This document shows, piece by piece, positions 29,062-40,026 of a stretch of 64,000 bases of DNA (its first letter is position 1; each line of letters starts with the position of its first letter). Origin of the DNA: a virus. Location: positions 1-64,000 of IMG/VR virus record IMGVR_UViG_3300032116_000013, one strand, 5' to 3'. The notes under the pieces are model-generated. The model was not told the DNA's origin. It saw only the letters and a program-made list of their open reading frames with translations, and ran no database searches. A program made the position numbers and the translations under genes.

Positions 29062-30201
29062 ATGCAACGATTTCGACTATTCGTAGAATCATTTCTATCA
29101 GAAGCCAAAGAAGCAGTTGGCATTCAGCACATAGAGCACCCTTCCGATCTGACGTTTGATGGTCCGAAACCCGCGCAACATGCTCTGACTACACTCAGGG
29201 GTGTTGCGATGGGTCGTACCCCAGCCACTCGTAAAATTGACGACAGAATGTCATTTCAAATCAAAAGAGATGACACAGGCAAAGTCGGAGTAAAGTATAA
29301 AGGCGCTGGTTCAAGTTATAATTATTCTAATGATGACATTGAACGTCAGCATGGACACAAGCCTTATCTAGCAAGTCCATTAAAGACTATTCTTGCACAC
29401 GCTCATAAAATTCTTCCTAATAGATCTGGAGAATGGCAGGGTGGGTTTATGTCCACACCTGAAACTCGTGAAGAAAAGGGTGGTCGTATTGGACACACAC
29501 CTAATACAGTCTCATATTCAGTCCCTAAAGATTCTTCAGAAGGCAAAAAACTTGCTAAATCTAGAGTCAGTATAGCACTTCATACTGAACTCAAAGGACC
29601 AAAGCGTAAGGCGACGCCTGTTATTGATCAGTCAGAATTCCGTTCTCACCCAGATGTGCATTTGGTTGATCACTCAGTTTCAAAAGAACAACAAAAAATT
29701 CCTGCTGCAGCAAAAAAGAAAGTCCTAGAACATATTTCTGCTGCTCAGTCTCTAATGAAAAACCATGACTATGGTCATTTAGCAGGTCATGAAACACACT
29801 TAAGAACTTATATAAACTCAACTCTTGATACTGGCGAAAAGCCAAGCGTCGAAGGTTATAAGAAACACCTCGGCGGAAGATTACAAAAAGAAATCGACAA
29901 AGTAAAAACTGAGAAGGCTAAGAATCAAAAAGCAGCGCAGCGCGATGCTCACATGGCTCACATTGATAATAACAAAGAAGCCTTCAATCGCTCATTTGAA
30001 ATTCATCACCACGTTCAGCAAGCAACTAACGCTCTTGCAGATGCTCTAAATAAAACTGCGCATGGCGGTGTCAAAACTGAAATCGCAGGAAAAGAATCAG
30101 GCGGCGAAGGGTTTGTTTCTAAGGGAATTAAACTTGTAAATCGCTTAGAATTTAGTAAAGCAAATCGTGCAAGAAGCGCACTATTAAGAGCAAAAATATG
30201 A
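29062..30201 (+). CDS. conserved T4-like protein (HIEHP motif) preceding cytidylyltransferase
   Basis: IQHIEHP..., KIDD, EGFV; same position as in aquatic T4-like phages. Confidence 0.7.
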   Translation: MQRFRLFVESFLSEAKEAVGIQHIEHPSDLTFDGPKPAQHALTTLRGVAMGRTPATRKIDDRMSFQIKRDDTGKVGVKYKGAGSSYNYSNDDIERQHGHKPYLASPLKTILAHAHKILPNRSGEWQGGFMSTPETREEKGGRIGHTPNTVSYSVPKDSSEGKKLAKSRVSIALHTELKGPKRKATPVIDQSEFRSHPDVHLVDHSVSKEQQKIPAAAKKKVLEHISAAQSLMKNHDYGHLAGHETHLRTYINSTLDTGEKPSVEGYKKHLGGRLQKEIDKVKTEKAKNQKAAQRDAHMAHIDNNKEAFNRSFEIHHHVQQATNALADALNKTAHGGVKTEIAGKESGGEGFVSKGIKLVNRLEFSKANRARSALLRAKI

Positions 30202-32804
30202 GTAAAGCAACATTTACCTTTGGCAGGTTCAATCCTCCTACCGAACAGGGTCATGGTAAACTGGTAAAGGCAGTTCAGGATCACGCCGAATCAACTGGTG
30301 GAACTCATTATATTTTTCCTACTCGTACGCAAGATCCTAAGAAAAATCCAATGTCGCATGAGGAAAAAGTGGGCGCTATGCGCAAATTGTTTCCTGAGGC
30401 AAATGTTATTTCTCACGAAAAAGTTAGAACAGCAATTGATGCGATGAAACACCTAGAATCAAAAGGTCATACTCATGTGACAATGATTGTTGGTTCTGAT
30501 CGCGTTGCTGAGTTTCAGGGATTGCTAACGAAATATCGTAAAAAAGAATTTCCTGGAATTAAAAAAGTGGAAGTTAAGTCAGCAGGACATCGCGATCCAG
30601 ATGCCGAAGGCGCAGAAGGAATGTCAGCATCTAAACTTCGCGGTCTAGTTGCTGCTGGAAAGAAAGATGAGTTCGTCTCACACTACAGTGATAAAAAACT
30701 TGGCAAACAAATACACGACACAGTAAAAGCGGGAATGCAAATGGAATCAATCAATCCTATTGGAATCTTCTTACTTGGTGCACCTGGTAGCGGAAAAGAC
30801 TATGTTTTGAATAACATCTTTTCACGCTTTGATCTCACAGAGGTACAGGCTGATCAAATTCTAAATCAATCAGCAAATGAATTGTATGAGAGCAAAACTA
30901 ATCTCGTCATTAATGGCGCATTAGATGAATCGCGAATTGCTAAGATTCAAGACATGTTGCATGAGCACGGATACACCTACGATTTCGTTTACGTTTCTGT
31001 TACCAATAAAGTCTCACGTCTACGCAATGAACAACGCGAGAATCCTATTCAAGAAAACAAGCGTATTGATAAATTCCTAAAGACAGAAAAACTTGCTGCG
31101 TTTGTTGAGGCACATGTATTCAATAACTCAATCAATCTAAACGAATCTTCAGAAATGGAGAAAGTTTTCTTTGCTAGCGAAATTCAGAAACTCCTAGAAA
31201 GAGTTATCTCTCTAGGTTTAGAAATGAAAGAAATTGAAAAAAAAGATGAACCTAGACCAAAATCGCTAACTGAAATTAAAAAGGCTACTGGCGATCTAAA
31301 AAATGCATGCTGGAAGGGTTATACCGCAATCGGCATGAAAACTAAGAATGGGAAAAAAGTTCCTAATTGCGTTCCAGTAAAAGAGGAAGAAGAACTTCAA
31401 GAAGAACTACCAAAAAAACTTCGCAGACTACCTAGAAAGGGTAATAGAACAAAAGTATTGGCAGCAAGAGAAAACAATATTTCTGAAATGCAATTAGTAG
31501 GAACTGATGAGTATAAAAAACATGCTATTGCTATGACTCCTGGTCAAGAGCAAGAAATTGAAACTCCATTAGAAACAGATTGCGGATGCGGCGGCGATTG
31601 TCAGTGTAATGAAACTGCTGCTTATGCCAAAAAAGATTTTAGAAGTTTAAGAAAAGAAACTGTTGATGGAGTAGATGTCACTCCGACGCTAAAACCAAAA
31701 AAAACAAAATCTAAGCCACCTTCTCCAGACAGATTAAACATGACAGTGGATGGATTGCCAATCACTTCTGTTTTTACGAGAGAAGAAAAACTTAGAGAAG
31801 CCGTTGAGTACCATCTCGAGAATAAGATTTCGTTCACTGAAAACGTCTTCCGTCCAGGATCAGATATGTTCTTTGAGATGATAAACGAAGCCAAGCGTCT
31901 ATATGCAGAAGGACAATATACTCCTGCTGATGAATGGGAAGCCGATATGCTCAATTCAGACATCGGTGAAACGGCAATCTACGAAGGTCGGGAAGTGATT
32001 CTTGACTATCCATTCGAAGAAGATATGGAACAAATTGATGAGGTGTTCAACACAGTTTATCCACACACATATCACGGGACTTTACGCCCAGAAGACCCTA
32101 AAAGCGAAAATGGACCTGAACACCTGTACACATTCCGAATCCCAGGAAAAGGAAATCTACAACATACTTATTCTGTCTCAATTAATCGCTTTCAAGGTAA
32201 AAAGGGCAGTTTATCGTTCGGGTATCACGGAAAAAAACCTGCAGATTTTGTCCCAGTAGGTAAACATGGAGACAGAAAATATTTTGAAGCAGGGGAACAT
32301 GAAATTACTGGCGAAGGTGGTGGAAAGGCTTCTTCAATCATCTCAACAGTTAAGTCTATTGCACAAAAACACGCGAAAAAACACGGTTTAAAAACAATGG
32401 TATTTGCTGGCAGCAGCGATGAGCCATCGAGATCTAAACTCTACAATAGAATTGTAAATCGAATGGGCGGTAAAGAACACAGATCTGACGATGATGAGTT
32501 TGATCCGTATAGAGAGTATTCGGTTCCTATGAAAGAAGAATCCGACCCAACAGATGGTAAAGGTATCGGCAAGCCATGGCGCGAAGGCGGCGGCGGTGCG
32601 GTTTATGTCCGTACAGGCGATGGTGGCGTAAAGAAGGTTCGCTTCAGTCAATCTGGAATGGCTAAGAAATTTAATGATCCAGCCAGAGTTCGTTCTTTCG
32701 TCGCTCGTCATCGCTGCTTGACCAACAAGGATAAGACCTCGGCTTCGTACTGGGCTTGCAGATGGCCAAGATTCTTTAGCAACTCTGGGAAGACTTGGTG
32801 GTAA
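30198..32804 (+). CDS. multidomain cytidylyltransferase-fold + P-loop kinase + accessory-domain protein
   Basis: TFGRFNPPTEQGH, VGSDRV, MSASKLR; GAPGSGKD; CWKGY...VPNCVP; C-terminal SFVARHRC...YWACRW. Confidence 0.8.
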   Translation: MSKATFTFGRFNPPTEQGHGKLVKAVQDHAESTGGTHYIFPTRTQDPKKNPMSHEEKVGAMRKLFPEANVISHEKVRTAIDAMKHLESKGHTHVTMIVGSDRVAEFQGLLTKYRKKEFPGIKKVEVKSAGHRDPDAEGAEGMSASKLRGLVAAGKKDEFVSHYSDKKLGKQIHDTVKAGMQMESINPIGIFLLGAPGSGKDYVLNNIFSRFDLTEVQADQILNQSANELYESKTNLVINGALDESRIAKIQDMLHEHGYTYDFVYVSVTNKVSRLRNEQRENPIQENKRIDKFLKTEKLAAFVEAHVFNNSINLNESSEMEKVFFASEIQKLLERVISLGLEMKEIEKKDEPRPKSLTEIKKATGDLKNACWKGYTAIGMKTKNGKKVPNCVPVKEEEELQEELPKKLRRLPRKGNRTKVLAARENNISEMQLVGTDEYKKHAIAMTPGQEQEIETPLETDCGCGGDCQCNETAAYAKKDFRSLRKETVDGVDVTPTLKPKKTKSKPPSPDRLNMTVDGLPITSVFTREEKLREAVEYHLENKISFTENVFRPGSDMFFEMINEAKRLYAEGQYTPADEWEADMLNSDIGETAIYEGREVILDYPFEEDMEQIDEVFNTVYPHTYHGTLRPEDPKSENGPEHLYTFRIPGKGNLQHTYSVSINRFQGKKGSLSFGYHGKKPADFVPVGKHGDRKYFEAGEHEITGEGGGKASSIISTVKSIAQKHAKKHGLKTMVFAGSSDEPSRSKLYNRIVNRMGGKEHRSDDDEFDPYREYSVPMKEESDPTDGKGIGKPWREGGGGAVYVRTGDGGVKKVRFSQSGMAKKFNDPARVRSFVARHRCLTNKDKTSASYWACRWPRFFSNSGKTWW

Positions 32805-33073
32805 TGGTGTCAGCATATACCGACGAAAAACTAAATAATAAAACGTTCTTCAGAACATTCTCGAAGGACGTTTTGAACGAAGAATTAGTATGGCATCGCG
32901 ATAAAAATAATAGAATTGTGACTGTTTTGGAAGGAGAAGGCTGGGAAATTCAGTTCGAAGATGACCTTCCAGAGCCTTTGATAGTTGGGAAAGAGTATGT
33001 GATTCCGTCATATACCTTCCATAGAATAAAGCGCGGAACAACGGATTTAAAACTACAGATTAGCGAGTATTAA
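32804..33073 (+). CDS. cupin-like T4-family hypothetical protein
   Basis: ELVWHRD...VLEGEGW...IP...FHRIKRG. Confidence 0.7.
   Translation: MVSAYTDEKLNNKTFFRTFSKDVLNEELVWHRDKNNRIVTVLEGEGWEIQFEDDLPEPLIVGKEYVIPSYTFHRIKRGTTDLKLQISEY
32830..32837 (+). promoter_or_regulatory. late promoter upstream of polyprotein gene
   Basis: ACTAAATA. Confidence 0.45.
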
Positions 33074-33074
33074 C

Positions 33075-35108
33075 ATGGCAGATCCAACAAAAGCATGGGA
33101 TAAAGCATTTACTTCTGGTTCAAAAGTAATGCAAGACAGACTAAAGAAAGTTCATGCTAAGAATCCAGCATTTCAATCATGGCTCAAGTCAAGCGGTCAT
33201 GGGGCTGGAGAAAGCGTCAAGCAAGCATCCAAAGAAGTCAAGCCAACTGTAAGAGCAAAGCAACTTGCAGCAGCAAGCGCAACTGCCTATGGTGCTACGA
33301 AGGGTCTTGCCGTTGGCGGAGAACATGGTGGTGCTGGAGTTTCTCAGAAAGCCGACAAGGGCAGAGTTTGGTCGCCAGATGAAGTTGCTGCATTGAACAA
33401 ACAACGCGGAACTGAGCCAGTTCAACTCACTCCTGCACAAATGAGAATGGCAGCAATCAAGGCTGCTGCTGAGAAGTCGGTTGCCAAAAAAGCAAAAAGT
33501 TTTGATGTTCCAACTCTACAGCGTCAACACGATGACTTGCGCGATGTCCATGACAGCCTACATTCCAAGGTGACCAGATCATCGATGGATGAAGAAGTCG
33601 AACTCGATGAAATGGATAAATCTCAACCATCTTCAAGTCGTGGTGCTGAAGGATTAGCATTAGGAAAAAAAGCGAATCCAGTTAAACGCGATAAAGTTAA
33701 ATCAGGTGCATTGAAAATATTGCAAAAACAATATAAAAAAGTAAAAGAAGAAGTCGAACAGATTGATGAATTAAAAAAGAAAACTCTGCAATCATACAAG
33801 TCAAAGGCTCAGAATGAAATTGAGTCTATGGCAAAAGATTTGAGAGGTAAAGAATATCAAACAGTAAACCCGCAAAAGATAAAAAACAGAGCATCGGGTA
33901 TAAAACTCGCGACAGCAAAACTTAAAAAAGAAGAAGTAGAACTCGAAGAAGGCAAAATTGCAAAGGCACTCGCAGTTGGTGCAATGTCATTGGCTTCAAT
34001 GGGAGCAAAAGCACACACTGATACAACAAAGTCAGTTGCTCAACTTGCCGCTGAACGTCCAGCATTGGCTCAGCGTCTACAGGACATTGGTGCAACGGGT
34101 CAAGTTCCAGCATCCGATGTTCGTGCTGCAGAGTTGCAAAGAAAACAAGATCAAGAAATGCCAGCATCAGAACGTCGTGCGAAAGAGTTGAAGAAAGAAG
34201 AAGTCGAGCAGATTGACGAAGCCAACATGCGCTTCGATTATGAAGCAGCCGCTCGCCCAAAATCATCTGATGTAAAAAACTTCTTAAATCGCAATAAAAA
34301 TCGTCGCGCGGCTGCTGCTACAAAAAAATATATTCGCCGCATGACAAAACTTGGCGGTCTTGGTCCAAATCAAACCAAGAAAGACACCGAAGCGCACATG
34401 AAGGCTTATTTTGAAGAAGTCGAGCAGATTGATGAAGTTACTAAACAGGAAGCCGAGGCAGCGCTCGGTGGTCCAGTCAAGGAGAAGCCAACTATGCCAC
34501 CAGGAAAACAACCAGCGGGTCATCGCTATGTCCGTAATCTTGCTAGAAGAGCAATGAAGGCTGGACTCAAAAAAGAAGAAGCCGAGCAGGTTGATGAACG
34601 TAATTTAGAAAATAAAAAGAAAAAAGACAATTGGGTTCGTGCTAAGGGCGTCGAAGCAGCAATCAAAGGCAAGGTGCCATTCGACAGAGGACATTCACCA
34701 TTGCGCTCTGGTCGCGAAGTTTTAGCCAGGGAAGATATAATGAACGAAGAACCAAAAGACGCTGCAGATGCAGGCGAGTATGACTACGAAGGTGATATGG
34801 CAAAGTCTCAACTTCGCAGCATTATGCATAACGCCAAGCGCATGCATGATATGCTAGAAGATAATACCAACCTTCCAGAATGGGTGCAGAGCAAGATTAC
34901 TCTAGCCGAAGATTACATCTCGACTACTGCAAATTATATGCAAGGCGAGATGAATGAAGAGTCTGAAATCTCAGAAGAAGGTAAAATTGCTGTGACACCT
35001 AGCGAAAAATCTCTCGCTAAATATCATGGCAACCCTAACAAAATTACTTATGGCGACGTGATTAAAGCCCGTATCAGATCTGCCGCTAAAAAAGCAATAG
35101 AAGGTTAA
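33075..35108 (+). CDS. modular polyprotein of basic units joined by acidic EEVEQIDE-type linkers (predicted internal head protein)
   Basis: eight acidic linkers ending in hydrophobic-X-E. Confidence 0.75.
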   Translation: MADPTKAWDKAFTSGSKVMQDRLKKVHAKNPAFQSWLKSSGHGAGESVKQASKEVKPTVRAKQLAAASATAYGATKGLAVGGEHGGAGVSQKADKGRVWSPDEVAALNKQRGTEPVQLTPAQMRMAAIKAAAEKSVAKKAKSFDVPTLQRQHDDLRDVHDSLHSKVTRSSMDEEVELDEMDKSQPSSSRGAEGLALGKKANPVKRDKVKSGALKILQKQYKKVKEEVEQIDELKKKTLQSYKSKAQNEIESMAKDLRGKEYQTVNPQKIKNRASGIKLATAKLKKEEVELEEGKIAKALAVGAMSLASMGAKAHTDTTKSVAQLAAERPALAQRLQDIGATGQVPASDVRAAELQRKQDQEMPASERRAKELKKEEVEQIDEANMRFDYEAAARPKSSDVKNFLNRNKNRRAAAATKKYIRRMTKLGGLGPNQTKKDTEAHMKAYFEEVEQIDEVTKQEAEAALGGPVKEKPTMPPGKQPAGHRYVRNLARRAMKAGLKKEEAEQVDERNLENKKKKDNWVRAKGVEAAIKGKVPFDRGHSPLRSGREVLAREDIMNEEPKDAADAGEYDYEGDMAKSQLRSIMHNAKRMHDMLEDNTNLPEWVQSKITLAEDYISTTANYMQGEMNEESEISEEGKIAVTPSEKSLAKYHGNPNKITYGDVIKARIRSAAKKAIEG

Positions 35109-35634
35109 TAAAATGAAGTATCAAGTACAAATCAAATATACAAACCCTGCTCATGAGCACGTTTCATTACGTCGTCGTGTTGATACAGTTACTCGTCTAG
35201 TAGAGGCTAAAAGCGAACAAGAAGCCTTGAATCGTGCTGCAAATCAGCAACGCGCTCTTGGCTTTATGATCAAAGAAGCCTCAGTTGTCAAGTCTAAGGT
35301 GATCAAAGAAGAAGCCGAGCAGATTGATGCAGCAAGTAACAAATACGAAGTCACAAAAACAAAGAGCCGCAAAATGCCAATGGAATTTGATTCAGAGGCA
35401 AAGATGCACCATTACGATGTGCATCATAATGATAAACGTGTTGGAACTTTAACGCATGACACCTATTTTGGTGGAACGAACGGAAAACTGCACGGAAAAG
35501 ATTTGCCTAATATTAGAAATTATGGTGATAATCCCCATAATCAACTGCATAATTTTTTGAAATCTAAAACTGGGCAAAAGTGGGCAGCCAATCTTCACAA
35601 ATATCAAAAAGAAGAAGTCGAGCAGGTAACTGAA
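33591..35634 (+). repeat. dispersed ~21-24 nt direct repeat GAAGAAGYCGARCAGRTTGAYGAA (8 copies)
   Basis: copies at 33591, 33747, 33930, 34197, 34413, 34575, 35308, 35611. Confidence 0.85.
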
Positions 35635-35940
35635 GCCGAACGCGAAGCAGGATACAAGATGTCACCTGCAGTTCGTAAGGCTCAGGCTGAATCTGACAAA
35701 CTTTCAAAAGTCGAAAAGCCAGCACAGGCTGGAACTCTTGCTGCGCAACGCGCTATACAACGTGCAATGGAACGCGAAATGAAACGTATGGGCGAAGAAA
35801 CCGTTAATACTAAAATAACAAAAGCAGTCAATCGAGTGGTAGAAGCAGCAAAAAATGCTCGTGGCAATAAACAACTAAACCCTAACAAGCCTGCAACTAA
35901 AATTAACACCAAACCTGAAATGGATGCAAACATAAAATGA
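35113..35940 (+). CDS. modular protein with EEAEQID/EEVEQVTE linkers
   Basis: same linker repeat as upstream gene. Confidence 0.7.
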   Translation: MKYQVQIKYTNPAHEHVSLRRRVDTVTRLVEAKSEQEALNRAANQQRALGFMIKEASVVKSKVIKEEAEQIDAASNKYEVTKTKSRKMPMEFDSEAKMHHYDVHHNDKRVGTLTHDTYFGGTNGKLHGKDLPNIRNYGDNPHNQLHNFLKSKTGQKWAANLHKYQKEEVEQVTEAEREAGYKMSPAVRKAQAESDKLSKVEKPAQAGTLAAQRAIQRAMEREMKRMGEETVNTKITKAVNRVVEAAKNARGNKQLNPNKPATKINTKPEMDANIK

Positions 35941-36392
35941 AAACATTTTTAGATTTTTTAAAAGAAGAGTCTATTGACGTTCCATTCAAGTTGAGCGATC
36001 AGAACGTTGATACTCTGAATTCTGAATTAGAAGTATTAACTGATAAACCATATCAGAATGCACCAATATTCTTAGCGCAACTCAGAGGCACATTTGAGCG
36101 TTATGGGGTATTGCTTCCAGCAACGATGACGGATCAATTCCTAAATCTAGATGCTGAGATAACCTATGCTCTTCCTCAAAACCCTGGTTTCTACATCTAT
36201 ATCGTGTACAATACTAATGATAGTGGATATGTTGATGGTTATGCTCAGGTTGTCAGTCAGGATGAATTGGCTGATCTAAAGAACATGAGCACAGAGGATT
36301 TATTGGGTGATGAAGATGAAGCACCAATGAAGCCAAGATATCTACCAGCAAGAAGAGACGACGATAGCGGAAATAGTAACGAATACGTCTAA
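35937..36392 (+). CDS. predicted internal head protein with capsid-targeting sequence
   Basis: MKTFLDFLKEE resembles T4 CTS MKTYQEFIAE. Confidence 0.7.
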   Translation: MKTFLDFLKEESIDVPFKLSDQNVDTLNSELEVLTDKPYQNAPIFLAQLRGTFERYGVLLPATMTDQFLNLDAEITYALPQNPGFYIYIVYNTNDSGYVDGYAQVVSQDELADLKNMSTEDLLGDEDEAPMKPRYLPARRDDDSGNSNEYV

Positions 36393-36395
36393 TTT

Positions 36396-36782
36396 ATGTT
36401 TGAAAATTTGACTGAACAAAATATAGCAATGTATGCAGTGAAGTGTTATGATAAACCTAACTGCGTAGAAAGCGAATTCGATGAAGATTATAAAAGAATT
36501 CGATATATAAAAAGGCTACTCTATAGATATAGAGTGACTGGTGACATAAAAGAACGATTGTTATTAAACCATTTGGTTGTGACACAGAATGTATTTGGTA
36601 TTGAAGCAAGTACAAGAATGTTATTCTTTCGCATAGATCCTAAAGACTATAGCGCATTGAAAACCTTTCTAGTCTACACTTCTGCTATGCCAAATATTGT
36701 AAAGGGTATTAGAGGGCAGAACATTATCTCAAGTGATATTAGTTTAGATAATAAACTTGTAGATATATTGAGAAAACTTTAG
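36396..36782 (+). CDS. conserved T4-like hypothetical protein
   Basis: YDKPNC...EFDEDYKRIRYIKRLL...ERLLLNH motif of aquatic T4-like phages. Confidence 0.8.
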   Translation: MFENLTEQNIAMYAVKCYDKPNCVESEFDEDYKRIRYIKRLLYRYRVTGDIKERLLLNHLVVTQNVFGIEASTRMLFFRIDPKDYSALKTFLVYTSAMPNIVKGIRGQNIISSDISLDNKLVDILRKL

Positions 36783-36854: not shown

Positions 36855-37910
36855 ATGTTTAAGTTTAAGCAATATATTGAAGAAGCCTACTCGAATATTC
36901 TTGTAGAAGCAGTATCCAATGACGACAAGGGTAAATTATTTGAACTCTTGCATGCCAGACATATGCACCCAGAGAAAACATTTCCAACTCATTATCGTGA
37001 TGAGATCTCTGGTAAGTCTCCAGAAGAAACTCATAACGCTATTAAAGCAAGAATTACACCAGCAGAATATAAAACAATTGATTCTCATGCTAAGTCTTCT
37101 GCTGAACATATGACTGCGCATTTAACCGAACAAGGTCACAATCCTAAGCATATTACTCATGTTGCTTGGACTAGCAATGGCGCTAAAGACGTTGCCAAAT
37201 TTACAGGTAAAGACGATCCAAATAACGATTCAGACGTTATGTATAGATTTAAGCATCCAAAAACTGGTGCTACAAAACATGTTGGCGTTGGATTAAAATA
37301 TGGTTCTCAAAAAGAGCCAAATATTCGCAATCCAGGTTTAGAAAGCCTCCAGTCCATGACTGGAGCCAAGACTTTATTAAGTAGATTTGCAAGCCATAAA
37401 AAGAAACTTTCTGCTTTAGGCTATACTGGTAGTGGAGAAAAGAATCACGAGCAATGGAAAAAAGAGAAAACATCAACTCGCGGTAAAGCAGCAAATGAAA
37501 GTAAACTTCAAACAACTCGAGCAATGGCTAAAGATATGCACAAAGCACTTTCTCAAAAATCTTCTGATGAATTGAAAGACTATGTTCGTGGAGTCGTAGC
37601 AGCAAAAACTAAAAGTCCAGTTTATAGAATGCATGCTCGCACTTCTCACAATGAGGCAGGATCAAGTGTGACGCATCATATCGATGAGCCATCAAAAGAT
37701 ATTGATACTCATTTGTCTCAATTTTCAGAATTAAAAATGGATAAACAAGGTAGCGGAATATCTGTTACTATTAAAGGCGTACACAAAGAAACTGGAAAAA
37801 CAGTAAATGTTTTGACGCATGCTGTTAAAGGTATAAGTGGACCAATGAAAGGTCTTGCTGCAACAACTAAACTCCCAGGATATCGTTCTGGAAATAAAAA
37901 GAAAAAGTAA
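36855..37910 (+). CDS. CTS-bearing PD-(D/E)xK nuclease-like protein
   Basis: MFKFKQYIEE; KGKLFE...DSDV...GVGLK. Confidence 0.6.
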   Translation: MFKFKQYIEEAYSNILVEAVSNDDKGKLFELLHARHMHPEKTFPTHYRDEISGKSPEETHNAIKARITPAEYKTIDSHAKSSAEHMTAHLTEQGHNPKHITHVAWTSNGAKDVAKFTGKDDPNNDSDVMYRFKHPKTGATKHVGVGLKYGSQKEPNIRNPGLESLQSMTGAKTLLSRFASHKKKLSALGYTGSGEKNHEQWKKEKTSTRGKAANESKLQTTRAMAKDMHKALSQKSSDELKDYVRGVVAAKTKSPVYRMHARTSHNEAGSSVTHHIDEPSKDIDTHLSQFSELKMDKQGSGISVTIKGVHKETGKTVNVLTHAVKGISGPMKGLAATTKLPGYRSGNKKKK

Positions 37911-38275
37911 TGAAAACATTCAAAGAATTTCTGAGCGAAGAAGCGCCAGCAAATTCAGTTGGCGCTGGAATGCAAGGATTGGGTTCTGCTCAAGGACAAC
38001 CGATTGCGGGATATGACACAATCCTCGCAAAGAAAATATTGCGTAGAAAGCCTCATGATGTTTTTGGTGGAAAGCCAGTATTCAAAGTGAATTCTGAAGC
38101 CTTTAACAAGGCATTGCACGGAAAGAAACACAGAAAGCATTACTCCAGTTATGTTGGTAGGGATGAAGTTGGACAGGAGATCAAAGAGTATGCTCGACAA
38201 AATCCAAATTCTCCAATAATTGTCCAAGATGAAATAACTGGAGCGATGTATTACTTAAAACACGGAAAGAGGTAA
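37910..38275 (+). CDS. predicted internal head protein with CTS
   Basis: MKTFKEFLSEEAPANSVG. Confidence 0.7.
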   Translation: MKTFKEFLSEEAPANSVGAGMQGLGSAQGQPIAGYDTILAKKILRRKPHDVFGGKPVFKVNSEAFNKALHGKKHRKHYSSYVGRDEVGQEIKEYARQNPNSPIIVQDEITGAMYYLKHGKR

Positions 38276-38278
38276 ACA

Positions 38279-38530
38279 ATGAAAGCAGTATCACTAATTC
38301 TTGCTGCTTTGTTATTGGTAGGTTGTGAAGGTGGTTATAGATATCCTTGTCAGGATCCAGAAAATAAGGACAAAGAAGAATGCAATCGTCCTGCTTGCGA
38401 GGCTGATGGATATTGCTACGATACATTGAATGGATTGCCACCAGAGCAATCAGAAACACAGGTTGAACAAGTTGAAGAAACACCAGCAGCACCTGCTGCA
38501 GATTGTAATTGCGAACAGAAAGGAGAATGA
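38279..38530 (+). CDS. Cys-rich lipoprotein
   Basis: lipobox LVGC; RYPCQDP...EC...C...C. Confidence 0.75.
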   Translation: MKAVSLILAALLLVGCEGGYRYPCQDPENKDKEECNRPACEADGYCYDTLNGLPPEQSETQVEQVEETPAAPAADCNCEQKGE

Positions 38531-38532
38531 TT

Positions 38533-38865
38533 ATGTTTAAGGGTCCACGTTATACTGAAACTGAATTGATGGCTCGATTGAAGTTTACTGTCGGTCTATC
38601 ACTCGCATTCACGCTCACTGGAATTGTTTTTGTTGTTCTGTACTCACTTATCTTTGTGACACAGCCAATGACTCAGTCTCCAAATGATGCCAAGTTCTTT
38701 GAACTCATCACACCAATTGCTACGTTCCTAACTGGTATTCTATCAGGCATTATGCTTGGCAAGTCAGAAGATAAAAAGGAAGAGCCAAAGAAGGAAGAAC
38801 CAGAAGTTCTTGCTCCAGAGCCAATGAAAGACGTTGTTGATGAGGTCGATGATCATATCGCCTGA
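38533..38865 (+). CDS. two-TM membrane protein (holin candidate)
   Basis: two hydrophobic helices, charged tail, directly upstream of endolysin. Confidence 0.6.
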   Translation: MFKGPRYTETELMARLKFTVGLSLAFTLTGIVFVVLYSLIFVTQPMTQSPNDAKFFELITPIATFLTGILSGIMLGKSEDKKEEPKKEEPEVLAPEPMKDVVDEVDDHIA

Positions 38866-38874
38866 GGTTGAATC

Positions 38875-40026
38875 ATGAGTCTAGCAGCACTACAAAAGAA
38901 AATTGGAATTACAGCCGACGGTTCTTGGGGTCCAGGAACTTTCAAAGCAGCGATGGATTTTTACAAACTATCGCCTGTTCGCGCTGCACATTTCTTTGCT
39001 CAAACGGCTCATGAGACTGGCGGATTCAAAGCATTCGCTGAGAATCTGAATTATTCGGCAAAGGGTCTTCGTGGAATTTTTGGAAAATATTTTCCAACAG
39101 ATGCAATCGCAGCACAATATGAACGCAAACCAGAAAAAATTGCTAATCGAGTTTATGCATCGCGCATGGGCAACGGTCCTGAAGCGAGTGGCGATGGTTG
39201 GAGATATCGTGGTCGTGGTGCGCTTCAACTAACTGGCAAGGATAACTATAAAGCCTTCGCTGATTATTGCAAGCGTCCAGACGTCATGAGCAATCCAGAC
39301 ATCGTTGCAACTGAATTGGCTTTCGAGTCAGCAATGTTTTTCTTCGAGCGCAATAAACTTTGGGCAATCTGCGATCAAGGAGTAACCGATGCTGCGATTT
39401 TATCCCTTACTAAGAAAATTAATGGTGGCACACACGGCTTACAAGATCGCTCGGATAAGACGAAGAAATACATTGGCTGGGCAACATCAGCAACACCAGC
39501 GCCAGTAGCGAACGTCGTTGCAAGACCAGTCGCCGAGGCACTCACCGTAACGCCAGATATGCAGTTATCTACACATTTCAAATTGAATGAGTTTACGAAG
39601 TCCGAAACTGCAATTCGTAAGCGCATAGATAACACTCCTGGACCTGCCCATGCTGCAAATCTTAAAAAAGTCTGCGAAAAAATACTTGAACCTGTTCGCG
39701 CGCATTATAATAAGCCTGTCCGTATTAATAGTGGCTACCGTGGTGCTGCCCTTAATGCTGCTGTTGGTGGTTCTAGTAAGTCTCAACATTGTAATGGGGA
39801 GGCAGTGGACTTCGAAATCGACGGACTCCCAAATCCAGACCTTGCAAAGTGGGTCAGCGAAAATTGTGACTTTGATCAAATCATCCTAGAGTTCTATGAT
39901 CCGAAAGAAGGACCAAATAGCGGATGGGTGCATGCTTCCTATTCTGAAGGAAAGAATCGCAAACAAATTTTGACAGCAGTGACAGTCAACGGAAAAACAG
40001 TCTATAAACCTGGCTTCGTAGTGTGA
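38875..40026 (+). CDS. endolysin: PG-binding + GH19 + M15 peptidase
   Basis: ADGSWGPGT; AQTAHETGGF, YRGRGALQLTG; SGYR, SQH...AVD, WVHASY. Confidence 0.9.
   Translation: MSLAALQKKIGITADGSWGPGTFKAAMDFYKLSPVRAAHFFAQTAHETGGFKAFAENLNYSAKGLRGIFGKYFPTDAIAAQYERKPEKIANRVYASRMGNGPEASGDGWRYRGRGALQLTGKDNYKAFADYCKRPDVMSNPDIVATELAFESAMFFFERNKLWAICDQGVTDAAILSLTKKINGGTHGLQDRSDKTKKYIGWATSATPAPVANVVARPVAEALTVTPDMQLSTHFKLNEFTKSETAIRKRIDNTPGPAHAANLKKVCEKILEPVRAHYNKPVRINSGYRGAALNAAVGGSSKSQHCNGEAVDFEIDGLPNPDLAKWVSENCDFDQIILEFYDPKEGPNSGWVHASYSEGKNRKQILTAVTVNGKTVYKPGFVV

Follow-up and report, generated by a model that had tools for sequence, protein, structure and literature searches.

Chains of exchangeable mini-modules joined by prohead-protease-type linkers in an uncultured T4-like phage and its relatives

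Introduction

The prohead protease gp21 of bacteriophage T4 cleaves after Glu in the motif I/LxE. It degrades gp22, gp67 and gp68 to small peptides through multiple sites, and it trims the internal proteins and Alt. A second precedent for capsid-associated processing is given by the polyvalent proteins, for which packaging in the capsid, co-delivery with the DNA and processing to units were proposed (Iyer et al. 2017, PMC5512222). Here, a locus is described in the IMG/VR virus record IMGVR_UViG_3300032116_000013, of which the first 64 kb (positions 1 to 64,000) are hereafter called the window. Two adjacent genes at 33-36 kb of the window encode polyproteins that are chains of small, mostly basic modules separated by a short acidic linker, termed the joint, that resembles a head-protease site.

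The two chains belong to a large, previously undescribed family of uncultured T4-like aquatic phages, and literature searches retrieved no description of mini-module chains with a conserved protease-type joint. The architecture of the family is modular and shuffled, with breakpoints in the joints, and both the joint and the modules are associated with prohead-core genes and with leaders resembling the T4 capsid targeting sequence (CTS). Because the joint resembles a head-protease site and is also a DNA crossover point, the chains are probably a reshufflable set of capsid-loaded proteins.

Results

Two chains of small modules separated by acidic joints

Polyprotein 1 consists of nine segments of 179, 53, 60, 90, 72, 54, 51, 76 and 42 amino acids (aa), divided by eight acidic joints (coordinates in Table 1). 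A preliminary description, made from the letters of the window and its open reading frames (ORFs), had named eight linkers in this 677-aa ORF, and all were located, at residues 173-635. Four of the eight are canonical, KEE[V/A]EQ[I/V]DE, and all eight end in I/L/V/M-x-E, a match to the (I/L)-x-E motif at the level of sequence only. The chain had also been described as mostly Lys/Arg-rich modules of 45-80 aa. This holds for the charge of eight of the nine segment cores, which have an isoelectric point (pI) of 10.0-11.0, but the first segment is long at 179 aa and comprises two conserved blocks, and one module (residues 560-627) is acidic, with a pI of 4.5. Both linkers given for the next gene, EEAEQIDA and EEVEQVTE, were likewise found in polyprotein 2, the former without its final Glu.

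Scans of both ORFs against Pfam and PHROG gave no match, scaffold and prohead-core families included, and no embedded peptidase domain was detected in either by the Pfam scan. AlphaFold2 (AF2), run with a 40-sequence alignment, predicts polyprotein 1 as helical beads with no global fold (predicted template-modelling score, pTM, 0.27), and the ESM Atlas model is similarly poor (pTM 0.18). The degenerate joints fall in low-confidence stretches of the AF2 model. In some modules the joint is immediately followed by a retained Met, as would be expected of once-independent units. Module i occurs in other phages as a stand-alone protein that begins MKTFKQILEA, similar to the T4 CTS MKTYQEFIAE, and is also present in cultured cyanophages.

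A large family shuffled at its joints

Metagenomic homologues of polyprotein 1 are abundant, with more than 2,000 of similar length, 657 shorter and 14 longer (up to 1,431 aa), and the best local alignments span just 12-50% of polyprotein 1 despite very high scores. At least one canonical joint is present in 194 of 254 homologues and at least four in 53 of the 254. Between joints lie 208 unique segments, with a median of 78 aa; a pI above 9 was calculated for 87.5% of them. Single-linkage clustering of joint-delimited segments collapsed to one cluster and was replaced by query-module mapping, for which ten query blocks (a-j) were placed on 120 homologues.

This mapping revealed the order abcdefghij in the window and orders such as hgef..j, abeih, gecf, abiej, gifj and ecf in relatives. 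The preliminary description had called the module set reshufflable, which is borne out: content and order vary widely among relatives, and the invariant content that it had named as a refutation was not seen. Individual modules are nevertheless well preserved, e and f remaining 90-97% identical across many architectures. The three head modules (MADPTKAW/MSEAAW, MADVKVP and MKH/MKYxV) are always N-terminal, and module j closes the product of the first gene as a C-terminal cap. Modules also shift between the two adjacent genes: relative L012 carries module e in the second gene, and the head type of polyprotein 2 carries modules e and f in relatives. Domains of recognized families are part of the same scheme, as HicA_toxin, DUF5824 and DUF6321 domains are exactly bracketed by joints in relatives, where an EF-hand match occurs as well.

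Nucleotide comparison places the breakpoints in the joints. When the window was aligned with its relatives by blastn, 51 of 66 distinct block ends lay no more than 12 nt from a joint, where 21% would be expected. In relative L016, a single shared joint connects modules c and f, between which the window has d and e. Relative L004 matches the window at 94% identity over the upstream gene and a-b-c, and switches to another module at joint 2. These two cases, together with the block ends in joints, indicate a turnover that is fast relative to point divergence and is routed through the joints.

A separate peculiarity was noted in the longest chain (P0242, 1431 aa, on a metagenomic contig), which has a HicA module and in which an intein-like insert (VYP/CVPLDS...ITGN/SAYANGW) splits a module of the PSAYANGW type.

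The joint is conserved as protein and as DNA

The linkers are a real and specific element. From 276 unique instances, the consensus [K/N]-E-E-V-E-Q-[V/I]-D-E was obtained, followed by A, K, G or V; the search pattern left the Val (80%), Gln (84%) and Asp (68%) positions free, so their conservation was not imposed by it. The amino-acid motif occurs in 10 copies in the whole 197-kb genome, confined to five proteins, three of which are in this locus. At the DNA level, a search that tolerated up to 3 mismatches to the 24-nt pattern GAAGAAGYCGAGCAGRTTGATGAA gave 6 occurrences in the window against 0.00 expected from 100 shuffles.

Synonymous codon choice in the joints is biased in a position-specific manner. 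Across 124 joints from 81 loci, Val is encoded by GTC in 59% (16% background), the fourth-position Glu by GAG in 68% (21%), Gln by CAG in 74% (26%) and the first two Glu by GAA in 98%, and third-codon identity in alignments below 93% identity is 75% in joint codons versus 56% in module codons; in these comparisons the related loci are not independent, and alignment ends favour matches. The residues themselves persist under differing codons, Val being encoded by GTC, GTT or GTA. A DNA-only search of IMG/VR with the 24-nt joint retrieved 92 copies on 80 contigs. All 92 lie in the single strand and frame that reads EEVEQ[IV]DE, none being intergenic or in another frame, and the ORFs that hold them have a median length of 431 aa. 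The retention of residues under different codons and the single frame of all 92 copies indicate selection on the joint at the protein level too. A free-standing DNA element was rejected on the basis of the same 92 copies.

Ties to the prohead core, its protease and the virion

The source genome, a 197,424-bp virus record of 40% GC that is rated complete, is T4-like, with the portal, the Peptidase_S77 (gp21) protease, the gp22 scaffold and gp23 encoded at 175-182 kb. The protease was identified by a PF03420 match of 105 bits (genome 178562-179017), between the gene of a gp67-like protein and those of gp22 and gp23. No cultured phage has a gp23 more than 54% identical to the one encoded here, and the nearest are those of cyanomyoviruses and a pelagimyovirus. 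A megablast search with 25 kb around the locus returned a helicase fragment only. The polyprotein genes form a separate locus ∼140 kb from these head genes, and hence outside the interval between the gp20 portal and gp23.

Outside the window, the canonical joints of this genome are found only in the 183-aa gp67-like protein, encoded between portal and gp21, which has two of them together with a gp67-like acidic run and an N-terminus that weakly matches the 'prohead' family phrog_1064. A weak copy of the joint is present in gp22. The protease itself carries KQKQIDE/IS near its C-terminus and the joint-like EEVKVITE/E near its N-terminus. This connection extends to relatives. Among the 80 contigs found by the DNA-only search, 55 show the locus of the window and 14 show head genes; in those 14, the interval from portal to protease holds joint-bearing chains, 305-782 aa long and with at most four joints each. 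Window module i is part of four of these chains. L084 and L085 likewise have joint-bearing chains among their head genes.

Homologues of gp21 (genome 178517-179161; L084-L088, L105 and L166) share a joint-like N-terminal motif (EEVKVITE, EEVEYITE or EEIEYITE) and an (I/L)-[DE]-E site ∼14 residues before the C-terminus, with the CTS-like tail KIFENFLSKL behind it. The terminal motifs may be autoprocessing and core-docking elements. The PF18818 family (MPTase-type peptidase) is absent from the whole genome, and processing by a polyvalent-type MPTase was rejected for this reason.

CTS-like leaders provide a further tie. The neighbouring genes at 35937 and 37910 encode the N-termini MKTFLDFLKE and MKTFKEFLSE, and relatives have the same gene order with CTS-like leaders across the whole locus. 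A chain that contains window module c (P0174) begins with the leader MKTFKNFLGE. Elsewhere in the genome (170264-171049; L089:264-1046), a 261-aa ADP-ribosyltransferase begins MKSFKEFLFEE and has hits to ADP-ribosyltransferase PHROGs, among them the T4 Alt-type 'RNA polymerase ADP-ribosylase'. It is likely to be a capsid-packaged analogue of Alt.

Evidence from virions is available for the cultured Synechococcus phage S-CREM2, a cyanophage. Mass spectrometry of CsCl-purified S-CREM2 virions detected gp154, gp155, gp156 and gp160 (PMC10665884), which are products of a locus syntenic with the window genes. The gp154 protein is a cytidylyltransferase with the leader MKNFSSFLTE and is homologous to the 868-aa fusion protein (W868) encoded upstream of polyprotein 1. 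The gp160 protein is a small chain: its Cys-knuckle module is 49% identical to W868 residues 368-402, it has the joint KKEETEISE/G, and its other module is 81% identical to one in homologue P0163, which also carries window module e. Weaker versions of the joint are present in the cultured Methylophilales phage Melnitz and Pelagibacter phage HTVC008M (KKEEIEIDE/M, NKEEVELDE/G and PKEEFQLDE/K). By tblastn against cultured phages, only module i was found (in cyanophages), and the full chain was found in none of that collection; the same search with relative P0078 found only its DUF5824 module.

Genomic neighborhood of the polyprotein genes

The polyprotein genes are surrounded by other small-protein and enzyme genes on the same strand (Table 1), beginning with a tight operon whose first gene encodes a DUF6267 protein. 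Homologues of the latter in relatives have CTS-like N-termini, for example MFGFKQYI and MLQFSAFLTE. The W868 protein carries a Cys-knuckle (CWxGY...NCVP; residues about 368-402) and a joint-like EEDMEQIDE at nt 32019-32042. Its kinase part is zeta/AAA_33-like, and longer relatives, which bear the JGI label 'nicotinic acid mononucleotide adenylyltransferase', begin with the CTS-like MKAYSQFLKE. W868 may be a capsid-delivered nucleotide- or NAD-related enzyme. The 92-aa ORF between W868 and polyprotein 1 is conserved at the same place in all close relatives and in phage Melnitz.

Directly 3' of the locus, at 38279-40026 of the window, lie a small lipoprotein-like ORF, a membrane protein gene and an endolysin gene (glycoside hydrolase 19 and peptidase M15), in an order that is kept in relatives. 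The T4 late promoter TATAAATA was not found near the locus. The heptamer ATAAATA is depleted in the whole window (4 copies versus 17 expected), and [A/C]TAAATA[G/A] is present 5' of gp19, the gp67-like gene, gp22 and the operon starting at 29062. Such a pattern would fit a late promoter of the T4 type whose sequence is avoided elsewhere.

Table 1. Features of the polyprotein locus (window positions)
Feature	Position	Strand	Remarks
DUF6267 protein	29062..30201	+	first gene of tight operon; N-terminus MQRFRLFVESFLSE
868-aa fusion (W868)	30198..32804	+	cytidylyltransferase-family enzyme and P-loop kinase, then small modules
92-aa ORF	32795..33073	+	overlaps end of 868-aa gene; directly 5' of polyprotein 1
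Polyprotein 1, 677 aa	33075..35108	+	N-terminal head (blocks a, b; residues 1-172), modules c-i, C-terminal cap j (636-677)
Joint 1, EEVELDE, residues 173-179	33591..33611	+	non-canonical, then Met; within stretch of predicted local distance difference test (pLDDT) <50
Joint 2, EEVEQIDE, residues 225-232	33747..33770	+	canonical; switch point in 94%-identical L004
Joint 3, EEVELEE, residues 286-292	33930..33950	+	
Joint 4, EEVEQIDE, residues 375-382	34197..34220	+	canonical
Joint 5, EEVEQIDE, residues 447-454	34413..34436	+	canonical; exact 24-nt consensus match
Joint 6, EEAEQVDE, residues 501-508	34575..34598	+	canonical
Joint 7, EDIMNEE, residues 553-559	34731..34751	+	degenerate; before acidic module i
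Module i, residues 560-627	34752..34955	+	acidic helical hairpin; most widespread module
Joint 8, EESEISEE, residues 628-635	34956..34979	+	before cap j; similar KKEETEISE/G in S-CREM2 gp160
Polyprotein 2, 275 aa	35113..35940	+	MKYQ-type head, one middle module, C-terminal tail module
Polyprotein 2 joint EEAEQIDA	35308..35331	+	final Glu replaced by Ala
Polyprotein 2 joint EEVEQVTE	35611..35634	+	
151-aa protein	35937..36392	+	T4 CTS-like N-terminus MKTFLDFLKE/E
DUF7207 protein	36396..36782	+	conserved locus marker; also in S-H9-1 and as S-CREM2 gp159
351-aa protein	36855..37910	+	leader MFKFKQYIEE/A
121-aa protein	37910..38275	+	N-terminus MKTFKEFLSE/E; 6/10 residues identical to T4 CTS MKTYQEFIAE

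Discussion

The account that fits these data best, and that we regard as reasonably probable, is that the chains are cargo of the prohead core, that gp21 cuts them into their modules, and that the joints serve at the same time for in-frame recombination. The chains would be made late and co-assembled with the prohead scaffolding core. The gp21-type protease would then cut after the last Glu of every joint, in keeping with the (I/L/V)-x-E rule, and the released modules, as internal proteins or peptides, would remain associated with the DNA. The conserved 24 nt of the joint would meanwhile offer a short homology for recombination, and exchange inside the joint would swap, add or remove modules in frame, between phages and between adjacent genes. 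The degree of confidence stated here applies to cleavage of the chains by gp21 within the prohead core, a premise shared with the first alternative below, which differs only in the fate of the pieces.

The steps of this account are not equally firm. That gp21 cuts the joints, and that the pieces are kept in the head and injected, is inferred. Charge neutralization or DNA condensation is the likely role of most modules, and some would act as effectors, such as the HicA modules of relatives. An anti-defense role is a conjecture that rests on the precedent of T4 IPI, the variability of the locus and the HicA modules. The preliminary description had proposed that maturation cuts the chain into about ten injected effectors or DNA-condensing peptides, forming an anti-defense arsenal; this interpretation is partly supported, by the linker element, the shuffling and the ties of joint and modules to prohead core and virion.

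Several observations weigh against this account. Polyprotein 1 starts MADPTKAWDKAF (MADPTKAW...), which is not a CTS-like N-terminus, and the start of polyprotein 2, MKYQVQIKYT, does not resemble the CTS either. AF2 places canonical joints inside continuous helices, one with a pLDDT of about 90, rather than in obviously exposed loops. The probable maturation site of gp23, NLWE/A, lacks the extended motif, so the minimal specificity of the protease fails to explain a consensus of 8-9 residues. Joints are absent from the gp67-like protein of L088, which is the closest complete relative. The S-CREM2 data show presence only, with no neo-termini, and their supplement holds no peptide-level data. 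Finally, support for late promoters is weak: CTAAATA stands 5' of both the operon and the gp67-like gene, yet its genome-wide frequency is no higher than expected by chance.

The alternative that survives best, although we regard it as unlikely, is that the chains are prohead-core filler, an accessory scaffold like gp67, gp68 or gp22 that gp21 degrades at the joints and whose peptides exit or act as counter-ions only, without any injected effector. It is favoured by the breakdown of those three T4 proteins to small peptides, the position of chains in the gp67/68 slot in 14 of 80 contigs, the joints in the gp67-like protein of this genome, the prevalence of high pI among the inter-joint segments and the helical modules without global fold. 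A scaffold role, however, needs no changing repertoire of unrelated modules, each conserved (90-97% identity) in differing contexts. Furthermore, HicA, DUF5824, DUF6321 and the EF-hand match are bracketed by joints in relatives, and module i is also made as a CTS-led stand-alone protein, which is the format of T4 internal proteins retained in the head.

It is improbable that the chain is an uncleaved multi-domain protein, such as a basic nucleic-acid-binding or coiled-coil protein, in which the joint would form a structural helix or serve for binding as a repeated motif rather than as a protease site. The prediction of canonical joints as helical and continuous with their flanking helices (pLDDT up to about 90) would suit such a protein, as would the N-terminus of polyprotein 1 without CTS and a joint consensus that exceeds the requirement of a gp21 site. 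Free module order, and the occurrence of modules singly, argue that no fixed quaternary arrangement is required; moreover, a hydrophobic-x-Glu ends every joint, the joint is shared with prohead-core proteins and lies near both ends of gp21, and some modules have a Met right after it. Also improbable is a joint that is mainly a DNA-level recombination element, its translation a tolerated by-product and processing due to another protease or to none: the position-specific codon bias with its higher third-position identity, the homology blocks that end in joints and the c-f junction of L016 speak for it, but all 92 DNA-seeded copies share the EEVEQ[IV]DE frame and strand, the residues are conserved across codons, the joints of cultured relatives read EEIEIDE and EEVELDE, and the genome has no MPTase-type peptidase.

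A further step beyond gp21-cut cargo can be offered tentatively, with a chance that we put at somewhat below even. The joint may be a dual-code element, acting as protein as a prohead-core docking and gp21 cutting site, and as DNA as a 24-nt portable crossover site. Together these functions could form an in-frame cassette system, a counterpart of integron arrays at the protein level, for the exchange of capsid-delivered mini-proteins, some of them host-takeover or anti-defense effectors such as HicA.

Should the head protease indeed cut the joints, a whole set of small, rapidly exchangeable proteins would be packed into the capsid from one or two genes, and the paradigm of T4 internal proteins, so far one of single genes, would come to include polyproteins. 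A role would be found for 'hypothetical' proteins in their thousands from abundant phages of aquatic habitats, and for DUF5824, DUF6321 and DUF6267. The joint would be a natural case of one short sequence selected as both protease site and recombination joint, and could give a ready design rule for the multi-protein loading of T4-type capsids. The hypothesis is directly testable in the cultured relatives Melnitz, HTVC008M and S-CREM2, and the weaker joint versions of the first two bring it within reach of the bench.

Comparison with known systems places the chains closest to T4 internal proteins and, in part, to gp67 and gp68, with parallels further afield. MARTX toxins and the multipeptide antimicrobial precursors of insects and amphibians, with their acidic spacers, also combine several effector or cationic units per product, conserved cut spacers and units varied by recombination; this is an analogy only, as proteins, proteases and biology are unrelated and there is no sequence relationship. 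Like polyvalent proteins, the chains join many unrelated domains in one polypeptide (9-10 unrelated modules here) with shuffled content, in a phage that packages by portal and terminase. Polyvalent proteins, however, have large enzymatic domains and would be processed by an embedded MPTase or other peptidase, whereas the chains have mini-domains, no peptidase and a single conserved joint of the prohead-protease type. In phiKZ-like giant phages (201phi2-1, SPN3US), a gp21-related protease similarly processes many head-internal proteins, such as inner-body and ejection proteins, after the Glu of short motifs that occur several times in a propeptide, but these are separate proteins that lose propeptides rather than chains of exchangeable modules.

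Within the T4 head, the likeness to gp67, gp68 and gp22 lies in the joint-bearing chains that fill the gp67/68 slot in many relatives and in the two canonical joints of the gp67-like protein of this genome. The window genes differ in their distance from the head genes (∼140 kb), in the lack of any scaffold-family match and in their variable module repertoire. The resemblance to IPI, IPII, IPIII and Alt comprises small basic proteins linked to the prohead core and an (I/L)-x-E cut motif. To this are added a gp21 homologue, T4-like leaders (on neighbouring genes, on an Alt-like enzyme and on the stand-alone form of module i) and a variable locus, as in the T-even internal-protein locus, where only the CTS is conserved. 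T4 internal proteins are encoded by separate genes and are cut once, behind one N-terminal CTS. Here, in contrast, up to about ten modules share one chain, polyprotein 1 has no CTS, and the conserved element is internal, an acidic stretch of 8-9 residues C-terminal to each module.

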